Source: Myxococcota bacterium
GTDB lineage: Bacteria > Myxococcota_A > UBA796
Direction: 5' to 3'
Assembly (NCBI GenBank): GCA_029251165.1
Contig: JAQXDW010000045.1
Coordinates: forward strand, 290-64,289
Length of the DNA: 64,000 bases
This document shows, piece by piece, positions 20,783 through 62,863 of this stretch (within the stretch, counting starts at the first letter, position 1; each line of letters opens with the position of its first letter). Both the position numbers and the translations under genes were made by a program. The notes under the pieces were generated by a model that had not been told where the DNA came from, ran no database searches, and was given only the letters and a program-made list of their open reading frames with translations.

Positions 20783-21103
20783 TCTTCCCGTCGGGGCATT
20801 GCATAGACACAACACATCAGCGGGTCTGGTCACGCGGTCACATCCTCTGGGAGAGGTCTGCGATGGGGTGCCCGATTCCAGCTCAAAAGAACTTTAGCAA
20901 TAGAGTTGACGGTTGGGTTGCCTTGAGGGCTATAGTCCTTACACATAAGAACATACGCTGGAGGCAGTCTTCAGCGCGCGAGCGGAGTTAGCCACTCCGA
21001 TTTCGCCGGATCCCGCCGTGAGGGCGGCGTCTCCCCACCATGGGTGCCGGTGGCTCTTGGTGGATAAGCAGGTCGGGACCTGTGAACATTAACGCACCGA
21101 AGA

Positions 21104-21116
21104 AAGGAGGTGATCC
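21104..21116 (+). promoter_or_regulatory. extended Shine-Dalgarno, equivalently a 16S 3'-terminus mimic on the minus strand
   Basis: AAGGAGGTGATCC. The minus strand reads CUGGAUCACCUCCUUUCU, an 18-nt identity to the canonical 16S rRNA 3' end. Confidence 0.4.
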
Positions 21117-21117
21117 A

Positions 21118-21159
21118 GTGAGTAAACCCTACGTGCATAGCCAGGTGGTGGCGAAGTAG
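21118..21159 (+). CDS. tiny 13-aa ORF (GTG start) downstream of the perfect SD; possible leader peptide
   Basis: GTG AGT AAA CCC TAC GTG CAT AGC CAG GTG GTG GCG AAG TAG, 7 nt after the GGAGG core. Confidence 0.15.
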   Translation: MSKPYVHSQVVAK

Positions 21160-21214
21160 TGGAGCACCGCGCATCGCTAAACAGATTTCGTCTGACGTGA
21201 ACTGTAAAGTGTAA

Positions 21215-21232
21215 TCCACTGGTATCAGTGGA
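21215..21232. other. perfect 7-bp stem hairpin TCCACTG-GTAT-CAGTGGA
   Basis: Read directly from the sequence. Its 3' arm overlaps one copy of the GGATATAGC motif. Confidence 0.5.
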
Positions 21233-21238
21233 TATAGC
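21228..21238 (-). promoter_or_regulatory. GCTATATCCA motif copy A
   Basis: The minus strand reads GCTATATCCACTG; see the finding on the recurrent motif. Confidence 0.3.
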
Positions 21239-21330
21239 GCAGCCCTTCTCCGGCGTAGATGTTGCGTTGCAACGACTGCGTTCCTTAGAATTGTGACACC
21301 GGGGTTCTGTTACGTTCCCGGCTACCACCG

Positions 21331-21410
21331 ACTCCCTCCAGGCACCGGGATGCACGTCCCGGGCAGGCGCAACCATTAGCCTGCATCTGCCTGGGGGGAG
21401 CTTTATTTTA
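21331..21410 (+). terminator. compound stem-loop followed by a T-rich tract (terminator-like, plus strand)
   Basis: The outer stem ACTCCCTCCAGGC / GCCTGGGGGGAGC (one G-U pair) encloses two inner hairpins, CCGGGA-tgcacg-TCCCGG and GCAGGC-gcaaccatta-GCCTGC, and is followed by TTTATTTTA. Confidence 0.35.
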
Positions 21411-21577
21411 CGGCATGACATCGCGCGTGGTGCGCGCAGTCTGAGCAGAAGTCACGGACGGAGTACGCTTGCTTCGTCGCGGATGGCCTGGCAGCAAAGA
21501 CGTGAGACCGTCCATCCATCTTGGGAGCACAGCGGAGGGGGTGTCGCTGGTGCGCTGAGCACGACCGCTGTGCTGCG

Positions 21578-22507
21578 CTATGGGAATGTCTTCCAGGCGC
21601 CATCGGTGGTGACGCTCGCCTCCAGCAGACCCAGCTCAACGAGGGCGGTCCGAGTGGCCGCCCAGCGGACGTCGGTCATCGCGCCGAGGCCGTCCTCGCC
21701 GAGAACGAACGGACGCTGTGCGTCGGTGATGCAGGCGAGCAGCTCGGGCTTGAGCTGGTCGTTGAGGCGCGCCAGCTCGGCGTTGGCCCGAGCCGGGTTG
21801 TCCAGGTATGCCTGCCAGGCGGCCCGGGTGGCTGCCACGAAGTCAGCGGTCCATGGCGGCGGCGGGTCGGAGACGGTCAGCAGCGCCGCGTACGGATTCC
21901 AGCCGACGTCGGCCGCCTTCAGGAAGCTGATGGAGGCACCCTGTCCCTCCGCGAGGCAGGGCTCAGAGGTGATGAACGCCTGCTGTCGAAAGGTCTCATC
22001 TACGAGGAAGGGGCCGATCGAGCCACCATACGGCACCGGCTCGATCTTGCCCTCCAGCCCGACCGTCTTCCACAAGAAGCTCTGGAACGGCGAGCCGATC
22101 TCGATGGCGAGCTGGCCATCGGTGAGATCCTGGAGCTGGGTGACTCCGCTGCTGCTGTGGACCATCACGCCCTGCGGGTTGATCTGGAGGCTGGGGAAGA
22201 CCCCGACCGCCTCGATGCCGCGGCTGCGCTTGACGAGCAGATCGTCTGCTGCGCTCAGGGCGGCCTCTGCCTGACCGGACGCCAGCAGCTCCAGGCTCGG
22301 CGCTCCGGGGCCGCCAGGGATGATGGTGACGTCGAAGCCGGCAGCCTCGTAGTGCCCGCCGAGCACACCCTCGTAGAAGCCACCAAACTCGGGCTCAGGG
22401 TACCAGTTCAGCGCCAGCCGGATGGGGGTGAGCGCCGGGGCGCCGGGCTGAGGGGCCGCGGCTTGTTCTGTCTGGGAGCCGCTACAGGCCAGGATCCACC
22501 ACACCAC
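21578..22507 (-). CDS. ABC transporter substrate-binding lipoprotein, NMT1/THI5-like (sulfonate/nitrate/HMP-type)
   Basis: Lipobox ILACSG. IRLALNWYPEPEFGGFYEG... is typical of NMT1/SsuA/ThiY-like binding proteins. It is the last gene of a minus-strand operon. Confidence 0.7.
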   Translation of the reverse strand: MVWWILACSGSQTEQAAAPQPGAPALTPIRLALNWYPEPEFGGFYEGVLGGHYEAAGFDVTIIPGGPGAPSLELLASGQAEAALSAADDLLVKRSRGIEAVGVFPSLQINPQGVMVHSSSGVTQLQDLTDGQLAIEIGSPFQSFLWKTVGLEGKIEPVPYGGSIGPFLVDETFRQQAFITSEPCLAEGQGASISFLKAADVGWNPYAALLTVSDPPPPWTADFVAATRAAWQAYLDNPARANAELARLNDQLKPELLACITDAQRPFVLGEDGLGAMTDVRWAATRTALVELGLLEASVTTDGAWKTFP

Positions 22508-23972: not shown

Positions 23973-25379
23973 CTACAGCGCATTCGTCCAGCTCATGCTG
24001 TCGGAGTCGGCGTTGCTGTGCGTGCCGTCGCGGGTGACGGAGGCGTAGGTCTTGCCGGTCGCCTCTTGCCACCGCTTCCGGGCGTTGTAGAGGGTCTTGG
24101 CACCGGACTGGATGCCGTAGACGGCATGCCGCAGGGCGCCCGGGTTCCAGACGCGCCCCTCGATGAGGTCGTCATCGGGGGAGATGAGGCCTTGCTCACG
24201 GGCAAGCTGTGCGAGCCGAGTGTGCGGGTAGATGCGGATCGGCTGCATCAGCAGGAGGGTGAACATCCGCAGCTTGCCGCCGAGCTCCCAGCGGGCGTGG
24301 GCGAGGAACTTGACGATGCTCATCAGGCTGCGGAGATCTTCTCCTGGAGAATTCAGGAAGAAGCTGTACTCGACGTCCATGTTGTGCTTCTTGGCGACCT
24401 GGACGGTGTAGAGCATGTCCTCGTAGCGGAAGTTCTTGTCGAGGTTCTTGAGCATCCGATCATCGACGTGATCGGGGGAGAACGACAGCAGCCCGCAGCC
24501 GGCACGCTTCAGCCAGATGATCAGCTCATCAGGGAGGGTCTTGCGGTGCTCGTTGAACCACGCCGACCACTGCACGTCGAGCTTGCGGCGGACGATCTCC
24601 TTGCAGATGTCGATGGCGTGGGCGACGGGGATGTTGAAGATCTGGTCGCAGAAGAAGAACTGTCGGACGCCGTACGTGTGAACCATGTCCTCGATCTCGT
24701 CCACGACGTCGTTGGCTGGACGCATGCGGACGTTGTGGCCGAGGAGGAACGTATCGGAGCAGTGGATACAGCGGAGCGCGCAGCCCCGCTTGGCCTGGAG
24801 TCCGACGCTGACGAAGGACGAGGCGAGGTAGGGCTGGTGAGGCACCAGATCGCGCCGGGGGTGGCGCAGCGACTTGAAGTCGACCTTGGAGGGCGGTCCG
24901 GTGTACTTCACCTCCTCGCCATCTCGGTAGTAGACCCCGGGAACCTTCCAGGGTGCGTTCAGGGTCTCTAAGAGCTGCGGGAGGCGCTCTTCGGCTTCTC
25001 CCCAGATGCCCATGTCGATGGCGTTGACCCGCTTCATCATCGCCTCTGCATAGAGGCTGAACGCGGTACCACCGGCGATGACCTTCACGCTGGGGCACTT
25101 CTTCTTGATGAGAAGGATGGTGTCCTGCTGGGGCTCAAAGTCGTCGGTGTACTTGTGGGGCATCCCGACCTTCATGTTGCGAAGGGAGATACCGACGACT
25201 TCAGGACTGAACCGGTCGAGGCATGCAGCGAGCGCCTCAAACGGGGCATCCCGGTGAAGGTTGAGATCGAAGATCTCGACATCGTGACCATCGAGATGGG
25301 CCGCCAGGTAGGCGAGCCCGATCGGATAGACCAGCTCCATGTCGAGTGCTGTAAAGGCCTGAACCAGAAGGACGCGCAT
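23973..25379 (-). CDS. cobalamin-binding-domain radical SAM protein (class B rSAM)
   Basis: N-terminal B12-binding-like Rossmann region (VKVIAGGTAFSLY). The CxxxCxxC cluster GCALRCIHCSD is followed by a radical-SAM core. The start is an ATG immediately preceded by a GCTATATCCAG motif. Confidence 0.8.
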   Translation of the reverse strand: MRVLLVQAFTALDMELVYPIGLAYLAAHLDGHDVEIFDLNLHRDAPFEALAACLDRFSPEVVGISLRNMKVGMPHKYTDDFEPQQDTILLIKKKCPSVKVIAGGTAFSLYAEAMMKRVNAIDMGIWGEAEERLPQLLETLNAPWKVPGVYYRDGEEVKYTGPPSKVDFKSLRHPRRDLVPHQPYLASSFVSVGLQAKRGCALRCIHCSDTFLLGHNVRMRPANDVVDEIEDMVHTYGVRQFFFCDQIFNIPVAHAIDICKEIVRRKLDVQWSAWFNEHRKTLPDELIIWLKRAGCGLLSFSPDHVDDRMLKNLDKNFRYEDMLYTVQVAKKHNMDVEYSFFLNSPGEDLRSLMSIVKFLAHARWELGGKLRMFTLLLMQPIRIYPHTRLAQLAREQGLISPDDDLIEGRVWNPGALRHAVYGIQSGAKTLYNARKRWQEATGKTYASVTRDGTHSNADSDSMSWTNAL

Positions 25380-25384
25380 GTCAC

Positions 25385-25395
25385 TGGATATAGCC
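25385..25395 (-). promoter_or_regulatory. GCTATATCCAG motif copy B, 4 nt upstream of the rSAM ATG
   Basis: The coding strand reads GCTATATCCAGtgacATG with no SD, which suggests a leaderless -10 element. Confidence 0.35.
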
Positions 25396-25458
25396 CGACC
25401 CTGTAGGGCATGCCCAAGGTCTAATGATGTCCTTTGATTAAGACGACTTAGGTGGGTT

Positions 25459-25704
25459 TTAGACGAACAGTGTCAGCTGGTTGCCGATGATCGGCCGCTG
25501 GCAGAGTCCGTGGAGGGTCTCCAGCGACAAAGGGATTCCCGTTGCATCGAGTGCCCTCAGCTCCGCTCCGTGTGGGGGAGAGACCATCGTCACGACAGCC
25601 AGACCGGGGGGAACCGGGGAGCCATCTCCATAGGGCTGCCAGCGTCCAGCGCCGGTGAGGGTCGCCCGGTGGCTGCTGCTGTATCGAATCTGTAAGTGAA
25701 GCAT
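25459..25704 (-). CDS. possible small protein (81 aa) upstream of the B12-rSAM gene
   Basis: ORF MLHLQIRYSSS...NQLTLFV. Third-position GC is moderately high (~75% by hand count). It has no SD or recognisable domain, so the call is speculative. Confidence 0.2.
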   Translation of the reverse strand: MLHLQIRYSSSHRATLTGAGRWQPYGDGSPVPPGLAVVTMVSPPHGAELRALDATGIPLSLETLHGLCQRPIIGNQLTLFV

Positions 25705-25763
25705 GACCGCAGGTGTTGACGTGGCAACACCGAGTGTACGACTTCACGGACCTGGATTCAACG

Positions 25764-26925: not shown

Positions 26926-26937
26926 CTGGATATATCC
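26926..26937 (-). promoter_or_regulatory. GGATATATCCAG motif copy D, 4 nt upstream of ATG 26921
   Basis: Same spacing to the ATG as copy B. Confidence 0.3.
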
Positions 26938-26944
26938 TTCTGTC

Positions 26945-28033
26945 TCACTCGCTGGCGGCGTTGAGCGCCATCGAGATGCCCTCGGTGGTGACCTGTGCCT
27001 GAATGCCTGTGAGTCGCAGTCCTGGATGGAGCAGCACGGCTCTCTCATCGATGGACCACATCAGCGTGTCAATGCACACCGCGACGGTGCGTCCCTCGCA
27101 GGTCAGCTGGCCCACGGGGCCGCCGACGAAGCCTGCGGCACGAAGCCGCGCCTCGCCCCGCTCCTTCTCCCAGCTTCCCGCGAGCGAGAGCTCAAGGGGG
27201 TAGCCGGCGAGGGTCTCCAGGGTGGGATCGATCTGGAGGTGGGGAAGGTCGAAGGCATCTCGAATGCTGTTGACCAGCTCATACGCCAGCGCGCTCGCTT
27301 CTGTCGGGCTCGGGGTGGGCTCGCCGGGCAGGGTGAGGATCGGAGCTGGCGGGGTGTCCATGTCGACGTGTAGTGGCACCGAGAGCACCGTGTTGCTCCG
27401 CTGGGTCAGCTCCAGCCACCACTCTCCCGGCTCGCTGAGGATCGGCTCCTCGGACATCAGGCCGCTGGTCTCGACACTTGAGGGCGACAGGAGGCGCCAG
27501 CCCTCTGCATCGGTCTTTAGCGACAGCGCTGCGCCGAGGGGGAGCTCTCGCTGGAAGGCACCGATGGTGACCCGAGGACGCCCGATGAGCGCGACCCAGC
27601 GGTCGGAGCCACCCGAGCGTGCCCGGACCAGTCCGATCTGATCTCCGCTCACCAGGAGACGCTGGAGCTCAGCGAGCAGGGTCTCCGGGATGTTGTCCTG
27701 CCGCACGCTGGCGACCAGCAGGCTCCGGACGGGGTGGGGGTAGCCGGACCGAACCGCTGCCCATCGCGCGTTGCTCAGCTCTGGGGCGAACGGCTGCTCC
27801 AGGGCCAGCGCGGTCGCTGCGCCAGATAGGGATTCTTGCCATGGAAGCCCCACGGAGACGGCCTGTGCGATGAGCGGATCTCGCGGCTCGCTGATGCCGG
27901 TGGCGTAGAGCTCTCCATCCGGTGCTGGCAGGATCGGTGCCGGCGGGAGCGGGGGAGGAGGAGGCTCTTTGGGAGCGCAGGAGAGCAGTGTGAGGAACAA
28001 CATCAGGTGGGGCCTCAGCAAGATGCGGACCAC
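26945..28033 (-). CDS. lipoprotein, paralogue of the 25764..26921 protein
   Basis: LMLFLTLLSCAPKEPPPPPLPP lipobox followed by a Pro-rich linker. The central region is similar to the neighbour (…SEPGEWWLEL vs …TPGEWRVEV). The start is either GTG 28033 or ATG 28003. Confidence 0.5.
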   Translation of the reverse strand: MVRILLRPHLMLFLTLLSCAPKEPPPPPLPPAPILPAPDGELYATGISEPRDPLIAQAVSVGLPWQESLSGAATALALEQPFAPELSNARWAAVRSGYPHPVRSLLVASVRQDNIPETLLAELQRLLVSGDQIGLVRARSGGSDRWVALIGRPRVTIGAFQRELPLGAALSLKTDAEGWRLLSPSSVETSGLMSEEPILSEPGEWWLELTQRSNTVLSVPLHVDMDTPPAPILTLPGEPTPSPTEASALAYELVNSIRDAFDLPHLQIDPTLETLAGYPLELSLAGSWEKERGEARLRAAGFVGGPVGQLTCEGRTVAVCIDTLMWSIDERAVLLHPGLRLTGIQAQVTTEGISMALNAASE

Positions 28034-28251
28034 CCCCTACCCCGGCATGCGCCGGTCCTACACTCGAAATCGTGTCACCAGGCTCCACATCTGCCCGACA
28101 TTCTGTCATCGAGAAGCTACGATTCACCGTGCTGGGGCACAGTTGTCCCGGTAAGATTGCCCCACCTGGACATGGGAGTGAGCCAGAATTGGCGTTGTAT
28201 CGTATTACGAAAACGGCGCGACTCTTGCTATGGTTGGTCTGCGGAGGATTG

Positions 28252-29722: not shown

Positions 29723-29742
29723 GTATCCGAAGTGACCTGATA

Positions 29743-29800
29743 CGCCGCTCCAGTCAGAGACGCCGCTCCAGTCAGAAACGCCGCTCCAGTCAGAGACGCT
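29743..29800. repeat. 3 x 18-bp tandem repeat (CGCCGCTCCAGTCAGAGA, middle copy has one G>A change) plus a partial fourth unit
   Basis: Read directly from the sequence. It lies between convergent genes, immediately 3' of the flp stop codon. Confidence 0.8.
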
Positions 29801-29809
29801 GTCCCGAGC

Positions 29810-29983
29810 TCAGTTCAGCGCAGCCGTGATCGCGGTTGAGGCATACGTCCAAACGTTCACCGCGCTTCCGGCGAAGGCGACGAGCCCAGCAATGATTCCG
29901 ACGCTGACCAGAGACGCGATGAGCGCGTACTCCATTCCGGTGGATGCCGCGTCATCATTCCACAGCTCAGTGAGTGTGCGCAT
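29810..29983 (-). CDS. flp: Flp/Fap family type IVb pilin (not in the ORF track; 57 aa)
   Basis: The reverse strand encodes MRTLTELWNDDAASTGMEYALIASLVSVGIIAGLVAFAGSAVNVWTYASTAITAALN. This contains the Flp motif G-x4-EY followed by a hydrophobic helix. A strong SD GAGGAGGGGAGG lies upstream. Confidence 0.6.
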   Translation of the reverse strand: MRTLTELWNDDAASTGMEYALIASLVSVGIIAGLVAFAGSAVNVWTYASTAITAALN

Positions 29984-30104
29984 CCTGACCTCCCCTCCTC
30001 ATAAGAATAGTATCGGAATTCCTCCTTCAGCTAAACACTCTCGGTGTCTCTTCTTCACGAGGAATACAATAATACACTCATCTGGATACTGATTACAGGG
30101 GGAA

Positions 30105-32742: not shown

Positions 32743-34434
32743 TTACTCTGCGGCGGGCGGCGCAGCTTCGCTGGCAGCCTGCGCTGGACGGGCGGGGGGT
32801 GTCAGGGCGACCTCCAGGTATCGCTTGAGGGCGTCGGTCTGAGACGAATCCGGCAGCATCTTTCGGATGCGCACTGGCATCGGGGTTCCAGGATCGGCCT
32901 GGATGAGGTTCTCCTGGAGGTGGGGGCCGACCTTGCTGTTGGCCACGGGCTCACCGACGCTGGCAACGATGCCCTCGAACAGGGTTGCCTCCGTGGCGTA
33001 GGCGTACAGGAAGTTCTGTGAGTAGCCTGGGTAGTTCCAGGTGAGGCTGGAGAGCAGCGCGGTGTCGAAGGTCAGGCCACGCTCGTTGATTCCGGGGACT
33101 GGCAGACCGGTCAGCTCGGCGCGGAGGTCTGCGGCGTAGCGGGTGAGGGCGACCAGATCCTCAGGGCTCTCGTAGAGTCGCTTCTCGACCAGGGTGTCGA
33201 CGATCCCGTCGGTGATCTGGACTGCGACATTCCGGGCGCGCTGATTCTGGAATGGCTCGCGCAGCGCCTCGGGGAGCTCGGGCACATAGCGCTCGGTGAA
33301 GCTCGGCTCGTAGAGGATGCGCTCGAACAGGCCCGCGAAGCCCTCGAGCCAGGGTGCGGGTGGGCTCCAGAGGGCCGGACTGGCGGCCTGACTGGCGGGG
33401 AGAAGCTGCCACCAGATTGCGTGTCCGCCTTCGTGGGCGAGGGCCTCATACTGCCAGGTCGACCAGCGGCGGTCCTGGCTGATGACGATCGCGACGTTGT
33501 CGGGCGGGCGAATCGGGAAGCCGTAGGCCCCTGGACGGGCATAGCGACGAGGCTCGGTGTGGATCTGCCAGCCGCTCGCCGGCAGGCCCATGTCCTGAAA
33601 CGCCGTGACGACGCGTTCCTCGGCGAGGTCGGCGTCGAAGTAATTGTTCGCCTCGTCTCCCAGGCTGATGAGGCCAGCGGCACGCCGGAGGGTGGGGAGG
33701 TTGGCCTGGGTGACGGTGAGGTTGGTCTCTGCGGCTGCTCCCTGGATGGCCTGGAAGGCTGCGGCATTGATCGGCTCGACGATCGGCTTGAGCTTGTCGA
33801 GAAACGACTCGACCTGCGCGGGCTTCAGGCCGTTGGTTGCCAGAGACAGCTCCCAGTAGTTGGAGAACCCTGCCCGAACCGCGACCGAATTGCGCAGCTT
33901 GATGAGCGCCTGGAAGTCGTCGTCGAGCACCTGGAGTTGGTGCTCGATGTGCTCTCCGTACAGCTCAGACCGGGTCTCCTCGTCGAGGTTCGGGGCGCTC
34001 TCGCTGATGTCGTCCCAGCCGCGATCGAGGGTGACGGTGGTCATGCCATCGGGGGAGGACCAGCTCACCTCATCGCTAGACTCCTCCTCCAGTCGTCCGA
34101 GCAGTCGGGTCTCTTCGGCCTTCTCGTTGGCGGTCCAGGAGCTGAATTGGAGAGACTCCAGCCAGTAGGCTTCGCCCTTGATTCGCTCTGGTGTCCCGGG
34201 CGATGAGGCTCGGGACTCGGAGATGGCCTGCTGGAGCTTCTTCTGGCGGAAGAAGGTGACCCGCGCCTTCTCGGCAGCAGCACGCCGCTGCCGGGCCTCC
34301 TTGTTGCGAACATTCCGAGCGTTGTCTCGCTCGGCAGCACCGAGGCTGACCATGATCTCGGTGTACTCGCTGTCGAACTCAGCGAGGGGATCGGTGACCG
34401 CATCGCATGCGGCAAGGAGGAATAAGATTGACAT
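32743..34434 (-). CDS. zinc metallopeptidase (HExxH) lipoprotein, M32/M2-like
   Basis: Lipobox LFLLAAC. YEALAHEGGHAIWWQLLP contains the HExxH zinc-binding motif, resembling HE[ST]GHALY of M32 carboxypeptidases. Confidence 0.55.
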   Translation of the reverse strand: MSILFLLAACDAVTDPLAEFDSEYTEIMVSLGAAERDNARNVRNKEARQRRAAAEKARVTFFRQKKLQQAISESRASSPGTPERIKGEAYWLESLQFSSWTANEKAEETRLLGRLEEESSDEVSWSSPDGMTTVTLDRGWDDISESAPNLDEETRSELYGEHIEHQLQVLDDDFQALIKLRNSVAVRAGFSNYWELSLATNGLKPAQVESFLDKLKPIVEPINAAAFQAIQGAAAETNLTVTQANLPTLRRAAGLISLGDEANNYFDADLAEERVVTAFQDMGLPASGWQIHTEPRRYARPGAYGFPIRPPDNVAIVISQDRRWSTWQYEALAHEGGHAIWWQLLPASQAASPALWSPPAPWLEGFAGLFERILYEPSFTERYVPELPEALREPFQNQRARNVAVQITDGIVDTLVEKRLYESPEDLVALTRYAADLRAELTGLPVPGINERGLTFDTALLSSLTWNYPGYSQNFLYAYATEATLFEGIVASVGEPVANSKVGPHLQENLIQADPGTPMPVRIRKMLPDSSQTDALKRYLEVALTPPARPAQAASEAAPPAAE

Positions 34435-62787: not shown

Positions 62788-62844
62788 GGAGACGAGGGTA
62801 CCGCATGGCTGGAGTTGCCGGATTTATCGGCGCTCGAGCGCACC

Positions 62845-62855
62845 TTGGATATAGC
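62845..62855 (+). promoter_or_regulatory. GGATATAGC motif copy C, 8 nt upstream of the AI-2E ATG and ~57 nt upstream of the divergent MMPL gene
   Basis: TTGGATATAGCttgatgcgATG; the reverse strand reads AAGCTATATCCAAGG. Confidence 0.3.
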
Positions 62856-62863
62856 TTGATGCG

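Follow-up and report, generated by a model that had tools for sequence, protein, structure and literature searches.

Leaderless mRNAs are a known bacterial route to gene expression without a ribosome-binding site. In the genomes that GeneMarkS-2 assigns to its 'group C', a Pribnow box is found 6-8 nt from the start (PMC6028130), and Mycobacterium, Streptomyces, Corynebacterium and Deinococcus deserti are among the members of the group (Cortes 2013 and de Groot 2014, cited in PMC6028130). For the delta-proteobacteria, leaderless genes have been predicted in 8 of 33 genomes, with an average of 15.8% of genes (Zheng et al. 2011, PMC3160421), and for myxobacteria the pexR transcript has been suggested to be leaderless (PMC12754779). 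No maps of transcription start sites for the Myxococcota lineage considered here were found in the literature that we searched.

The locus described here belongs to a 64-kb stretch of DNA, hereafter the window, from an uncultured Myxococcota genome. As in group C, a TA...T hexamer lies at a fixed short distance from ATG or GTG, there is no Shine-Dalgarno (SD) site, the -35 region is poorly defined, and SD-led genes coexist with those of leaderless type. The locus differs from group C in its host, an uncultured member of the Myxococcota, and in the box initially flagged, that of a radical-SAM gene, which ends in C and not in T. With the delta-proteobacterial predictions and pexR it shares the phylogenetic neighbourhood and the reliance on the promoter-to-start distance. 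Those cases, however, concern cultivated genomes and other genes, whereas here orthologues are compared, and SD site and box alternate at one gene.

The genes around the sites encode a 362-aa protein without a family match, a CAP-domain lipoprotein, a B12-binding radical-SAM protein and a NitT/TauT-type ABC importer, and a divergent pair of MMPL and AI-2E transporter genes is located at the far end of the window. The closest relatives, numbered with the prefix L, are L119 (96% identity for the CAP protein), L001 (95% for the radical-SAM protein) and L120-122 (82% for the CAP protein). The preliminary description had reported four occurrences of an AT-rich 10-mer, GCTATATCCA, and proposed it as a -10 element for leaderless mRNAs. 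Exact copies number three, all on the minus strand, at 25385-25394 (site A), 21229-21238 (site C) and 62846-62855 (site D), and the fourth site, 26927-26936 (site B), holds a one-mismatch copy, GATATATCCA. The spacings quoted were right, with GCTATATCCAGtgacATG before ATG 25379, GATATATCCAGcttcATG before ATG 26921 and, on the plus strand, TATAGC 8 nt before the AI-2E ATG 62864. These starts had also been said to lack SD sites, and no SD-like word is indeed present 5-10 nt before any of the three; nor do GGAG, GAGG or AGGA occur within 20 nt of ATG 25379, 62864 or 62787. The features are collected in Table 1.

Table 1. Positions of candidate promoter elements, copies of the 10-mer, starts preceded by a box, and island RNA counterparts in relatives
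Feature	Position	Strand	Remarks
Exact copy of the 10-mer, site C	21229-21238	-	Poorly conserved middle segment of the island RNA; half of hairpin 21214-21233
One-mismatch copy GCTGTATCCA	24763-24772	-	Within the radical-SAM coding sequence, CxxxCxxC codons
ATG start codon of the B12-binding radical-SAM gene (23973-25379), proposed transcription start	25377-25379	-	Pfam, NCBIfam, orthologues
Candidate -10 hexamer TATATC, radical-SAM gene (site A)	25387-25392	-	Within 10-mer 25385-25394; 7 nt (25380-25386) to ATG 25379
TTGGGCATGCCC, possible -35 (TTGGGC, 19-nt spacer)	25406-25417	-	Overlaps palindrome GGGCATGCCC; GGGCATGC kept in L119, L120 and L001
TATATC in the one-mismatch copy 26927-26936 (site B)	26929-26934	-	7 nt before ATG 26921 of the CAP-domain lipoprotein gene
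Candidate -10 TACCCT, MMPL gene	62795-62800	-	7 nt before ATG 62787
Candidate -10 TAGCTT, AI-2E transporter gene	62852-62857	+	6 nt before ATG 62864; 4-nt overlap with the complement of the 10-mer 62846-62855
Window starts with a strict box	3338, 12318, 34434, 53721, 56073, 62787, 62864, 7244
Window starts with a looser box	25379, 26921, 54034
Island RNA in relatives	L119 14079-14596; L120 15331-15848; L123 4216-4587; L126 5038-5435

We think it likely that a minority of genes are expressed as leaderless mRNAs from -10 boxes close to their start codons, and that the 10-mer is not the unit. RNA polymerase carrying the housekeeping sigma factor would recognise a -10 box of the Pribnow type, TAnnnT, usually after G/C, which would end about 6 nt, and occasionally 5-8 nt, before the start codon. 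The first transcribed base would be the A of the ATG or one beside it, and ribosomes would initiate on the 5'-terminal AUG without an SD site. Sequence comparison leads us to infer promoter activity for the boxes and a transcription start at the ATG.

The radical-SAM gene and its orthologues

The protein encoded downstream of site A contains the Pfam domains B12-binding and Radical_SAM. Its start codon is secure, because MRVLLVQ forms the N-terminus of all 38 orthologues and the NCBIfam models align residue 2 of the protein with profile position 1. The 60 nt before the ATG were compared at these 38 loci, which come from freshwater and other Myxococcota MAGs and share 64-95% protein identity. 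At 17 of them a strict TANNNT, typically GCTATGGT, lies 5-8 nt before the ATG, and all 17 are without an SD site; at nine others GGAG or GAGG lies 5-9 nt before the ATG, and all nine are without a proximal box. Box and SD site are found together at none of the 38 loci (Fisher's exact P = 0.002, a value that is only indicative since the loci are related and the counts non-independent). In four of the nine SD loci GCTA[A/G]GT, which contains TANNNT, is placed 23-24 nt upstream, an arrangement that would imply a short leader.

The boxes of the orthologues read G[C/G]TAnnnT or TATRNN and end 5-8 nt before the ATG. The sub-group of the window (window, L001-L006, L119, L120 and L123) has TAT[A/G]NN in that position and lacks the final T, and at site A itself TATATC has a C where a near-invariant final T would be expected, with a spacing of 7 nt versus a modal 6 nt. 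L119 and L120 share GGGCTATATCCA with the window at an unchanged distance from the ATG, with both flanks changed in L120, and the site in L001 reads GGGATATATCTA, with two mismatches to the 10-mer. The 12-nt identity in L120 exceeds the hexamer and could point to a protein-binding site there. Further upstream, TTGGGCATGCCC might serve as a -35 element.

That a -10-like box precedes the SD-less ATG of this gene had been claimed in the preliminary description, and the claim stands, with the position of the box kept in the orthologues and its presence mutually exclusive with that of an SD site. The reading of the radical-SAM gene as leaderless in geometry, with a -10 box that would place the transcription start on the ATG, holds well.

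A second conserved block, GTAGCCcgcccGACAG (TGT-N10-ACA-like), precedes the radical-SAM -10 box by about 22 nt in L010, L020-L026, L038 and others, and it may bind a regulator or serve the divergent gene as promoter. The palindrome GGGCATGCCC of the window (25406-25415) occupies a similar position. The spacer between the CAP and radical-SAM genes (25380-25763 in the window) measures about 360-390 nt and includes an AT-rich stretch in the window, L119, L120 and L001; in distant loci (e.g. L003, L007, L014, L015 and L032) it measures about 35-100 nt. ORFs of 81-114 aa in the spacer show 49% protein conservation, compared with 88-95% for the neighbouring genes, and a 91-aa gene is called in the spacer of L120.

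Boxes at other genes and across the lineage

The CAP lipoprotein gene starts at ATG 26921 (MLLLLALGC), because in L120 a TAG stop codon and then GGAG, 5 nt before the ATG, directly precede the equivalent codon; in that locus an SD site stands in place of a box. Distant CAP orthologues start in overlap with the upstream stop, as ATGA or GTGA, and a comparable in-frame GTG is found at 26948 in the window. This GTG, which would make copy B coding, was dropped as the start in view of the stop and SD site in L120. A TA-box ends 7 nt before the CAP ATG in the window (TATATC), in L119 (TACGTC) and in L001 (TAAGGC), with upstream sequences that are non-homologous. The proposal that this copy is a leaderless box is favoured by the spacing, the conserved start and the TA-box in these three, but the SD site in L120 and the upstream gene, only 23 nt away from ATG 26921, speak against it. 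The near-copy at 26927-26936 may be an internal leaderless promoter of the CAP gene, a possible but unproven role; the alternative would be that ribosomes re-initiate 23 nt past the stop codon of the preceding gene. Copy B marks the exact point at which the window and L001 cease to be syntenic (L001 1-213 versus window 26927-27140), and L001 is without the 362-aa upstream gene, unrelated and apparently non-coding DNA being found in its place.

The unusual last base of these boxes might instead reflect a genus-specific alternative sigma factor or an activator-dependent promoter class (TATAYC, without the final T). The radical-SAM boxes of the close relatives end in a base other than T (TATATC, TATACC, TATGAC, TATGAA and TATGGG, with L126 as a possible exception), and the three CAP boxes at their common distance, together with the conserved GGGCATGC palindrome in the -35 region, could be read in the same way. 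However, distant radical-SAM orthologues use canonical TANNNT at the same place, and the TANNNC class is weakly supported statistically, as TANNNC ends 7 nt before a start in 13 cases versus 4.9, a weak enrichment with P = 0.002 uncorrected for multiple tests. We therefore regard a separate factor as unlikely and keep to leaderless transcription from ordinary -10 boxes.

At the divergent transporter pair, both boxes are strict TANNNT hexamers within 5-8 nt of the start, TAGCTT-6-ATG for AI-2E and TACCCT-7-ATG for MMPL. The corresponding sequences in L039, where the 10-mer of site D is retained, are TAGCCT-6-ATG and TAGCCT-7-ATG, the latter at the same place within diverged flanks, and AI-2E orthologues of about 42% identity show TAAGCT, TATCCT or TATTGT ending 6-7 nt before ATG or GTG. 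The Pfam domain of the AI-2E protein begins at residue 12, and the orthologue starts align. Of the earlier view of AI-2E, the leaderless part is borne out by the conserved box and the missing SD site, but the hexamer chosen, TATAGC at 8 nt, is in the wrong register, because the complement of the 10-mer gives only TAGC of the conserved TAGCTT at 6 nt. At this site the 10-mer would thus supply the first four bases of the AI-2E box. The leaderless geometry of AI-2E is well supported, and the box would be its promoter and the ATG its presumed transcription start. A role of the same copy as the MMPL promoter, also suggested before, has been given up: on the minus strand it lies 59 nt upstream of the MMPL ATG 62787 and is unneeded, the MMPL gene having its own box.

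For the lineage-wide counts, ORFs were defined by GC3 (the G+C content by codon position) with a heuristic of our own instead of a trained gene finder, and radical-SAM orthologues and duplicate N-termini were removed. Over the window and its relatives (0.64 Mb, as opposed to a whole genome), TANNNT ends 6 nt before ATG in 20 cases, compared with 3.45 per position (P = 9e-10; about six-fold), and 6 nt before GTG in 16 cases, compared with 3.43 per position. Both TAY and TAR hexamers show the peak at this distance, so that it is not created by in-frame stop codons, and no such peak is seen before internal in-frame ATG or GTG codons. 

Within the window, about 8-11 of some 50 genes have leaderless geometry, and many others have clear GGAGG sites; the mix matches both group C and the 15.8% estimate. 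Start 53721 is anchored by the GxGxxG motif of a FAD-binding fold at the N-terminus, with profiles from residue 1-3. At start 34434, that of a 563-aa lipoprotein gene, the box is kept in L119 and L120 although the N-terminal codons and the flanks diverge. A GTG at 28072, with TACACT 7 nt upstream, was rejected as a start, the relatives starting downstream with a GGAGGA SD site.

Lipoprotein-like N-termini are only 8-12 residues long (M-L-L-x-L-L-x-A/G-C) and lack a charged n-region, in leaderless-type and SD-led genes alike. They are found in the window at 34434, 7244, 56073, 8080, 6712, 59987, 44017, 40114 and 26921, and at many related loci, and gene callers may extend genes with such short signals wrongly upstream.

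Scans in the style of E. coli detected no canonical -35/-10 pair and no terminators at the three sites; such scans are expected to miss leaderless promoters of high G+C content, and the result is uninformative here. The missing pair could also be taken to mean that the boxes are coincidental and that the genes depend on upstream promoters, leadered mRNAs and an SD-independent or coupled start of translation. The box at site A, without the canonical final T, would fit this explanation, as would the CAP gene, whose closeness to the gene upstream and whose start-stop overlap in distant orthologues suggest coupling. Coincidence leaves unexplained, however, the fixed distance of the TA-box in the orthologues and its exclusivity with the SD site, as well as the roughly six-fold peak 6 nt before starts, which internal ATG and GTG codons do not show. 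We consider it quite improbable, and leaderless expression from -10 boxes remains our preferred reading.

The 10-mer and the island RNA gene

The three exact copies of GCTATATCCA in the window compare with 0.04 expected from dinucleotide shuffles, and none of 100 shuffles reaches three. When one mismatch is permitted, two further copies appear, that of site B and GCTGTATCCA inside the radical-SAM gene, the latter taken as chance. AT-rich 10-mers with at least three copies number 15 in the window, compared with 2.6 in shuffles; most are coding words, and GCTATATCCA is the sole fully intergenic one among the 15. In shuffled intergenic DNA, an AT-rich 10-mer with at least three intergenic copies arises in 7 of 1000 trials. 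The recurrence of GCTATATCCA is unusual in that it exceeds a composition-only expectation, a null that leaves out the TA-boxes flanked by G+C common to promoters and is applied to a word chosen post hoc. Another frequent word, CCTCATCGAG, with 13 copies, was rejected as an element since it spells Leu-Ile-Glu codons in coding sequence. An 18-nt unit, ACGCCGCTCCAGTCAGAG/A, is present in at least three tandem copies at 29743-29800 on the plus strand, in the intergenic stretch 29723-30104.

No exact copy of GCTATATCCA was found in the related genomes L001-L038 (about 580 kb), so that it is not a lineage-wide element, and beyond the window exact copies occur at orthologous sites only (L119 and L120 for site A, L039 for site D). 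Its placement relative to genes also differs from copy to copy. At site A it stands 4 nt before the ATG, where it contains the presumed radical-SAM box; at site C it lies inside an RNA gene, probably on the opposite strand, with no adjoining start codon; and at site D it is either distant from the MMPL ATG or, reversed, overlaps the AI-2E box. Neither a constant position and orientation nor recurrence in related genomes, as would characterise a cis-element, was observed. The idea of the 10-mer as a recurring functional unit has accordingly been abandoned in view of these differing registers, orientations and distances, the loss of copy C in relatives and the separate MMPL box. GCTATATCCA is not a functional entity in itself, and overlaps what look like ordinary -10 boxes at two or three sites. 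A shared promoter-like composition (G/C, TATA, G/C) and chance together give the best explanation of why the three exact copies are identical.

That GCTATATCCA or GGGCTATATCCA is instead a genus-specific operator for a transcription factor, laid over -10 regions and defining a regulon of the radical-SAM/ABC operon and the AI-2E/MMPL pair, would agree with the improbable number of intergenic copies and with the retention of the whole word at site A (L119, L120) and site D (L039) while flanks change, but we hold it to be very unlikely, given that the word is neither a palindrome nor paired with a repeat, that its copies differ in orientation and distance to genes, that copy C falls midway along an RNA gene and is missing from L120, L123 and L126, that L001 has two mismatches at site A and the 580 kb of relatives no exact copy, and that retention concerns two orthologous sites only, over short evolutionary distances. 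We give equally little credence to a specialised promoter/operator module in which GGGCTATATCCA and the upstream GGGCATGC palindrome, served by a dedicated factor, would tie the same operon to the same transporter pair. Ordinary -10 boxes of leaderless genes, which the word happens to overlap, account for sites A and D in our preferred reading.

Site C has a different setting. What had been called a non-coding island (20785-21589) is a conserved gene for an RNA of about 470 nt (plus strand, 20906-21409). About 500 nt of the island are better conserved than the flanking coding DNA, and compensatory changes affect 20-24 predicted base pairs. A 13-bp G+C-rich closing stem (21332-21344 / 21388-21400), followed by a U-run, is present in four of four lineages. 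The promoter-like sequence TTGACG-N19-TATAGT (20906-20936) is kept in L119 and L120, the closer relatives, and two helices show G.U pairs on the plus strand where the minus strand would show A.C mismatches. The plus strand is the likelier transcript because of the U-run after the stem, the promoter in closer relatives and this G.U/A.C asymmetry, the same features that disfavour a minus-strand fragment or mimic of the 16S rRNA 3' end. The RNA gene lies downstream of the NitT/TauT binding-protein gene in L119, L120-122, L123/124 and L126, and in every case it converges on the 3' end of the gene for the substrate-binding protein of the radical-SAM/ABC cluster. Its absence from L001 had raised the possibility of an insertion, which was rejected since the island is present in L119, L120, L123 and L126; L001 and L125 carry deletions.

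The copy at 21228-21238 had also been counted as a promoter element. It has no adjoining start codon, lies within the conserved RNA gene and is lost in relatives (one mismatch in L119, no TATA in L120, and a middle segment diverged or deleted in L123 and L126). We reject copy C as a conserved promoter; it is a poorly conserved hairpin arm in an unrelated RNA gene, one that is probably read from the other strand.

An invariant AGAAAGGAGGTGATCCAG (21101-21118) in the island RNA is a perfect complement of the 16S rRNA 3' tail and is followed by CCCTACG. A 13-codon ORF (21118-21159) would encode MSKPYVHSQVVAK, and its changes between species are mostly synonymous or fall in codons 2-3. The RNA could serve as the message for a small protein or could base-pair with the 16S tail. 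When the island was folded as a single sequence, the z scores of -1.9 and -1.7 fell short of significance, and a 10-bp inverted repeat (21234-21243 / 21572-21581) is at chance level. Rfam returned no gathering-level match in the window and the tRNA scan no hit, so that no riboswitch or known RNA explains the sites. Against RF01867 (CC2171), an sRNA of Caulobacter and Methylobacteriaceae and its sole, weak database match, the island RNA scored 19.4, 14.8 and 11.8 bits, below the gathering threshold of 75. The two have the box GAAAGGAGGUGAUCCAGUG on the same strand in common, but the RF01867 model spans 159 nt compared with about 470 nt for the Myxococcota RNA, which is not a member of the family.

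Significance for the Myxococcota

The architecture seen here has already been described in other bacteria, and the window adds a new, unsurprising example in the Myxococcota; nothing is altered in the mechanism of leaderless initiation itself. For annotation, gene starts in these freshwater Myxococcota need a leaderless model, as many will otherwise be misplaced. Cases in point are the very short lipoprotein signal peptides of the form MLLxLLxAC and the CAP gene, called as 385 aa versus 391 or 394 aa. Switching from SD-led to leaderless initiation at single genes might be frequent within the Myxococcota. For evolution, the replacement of a -10 box by an SD site, and the reverse, at one and the same gene offers a clean natural example of a change in the mode of initiation.
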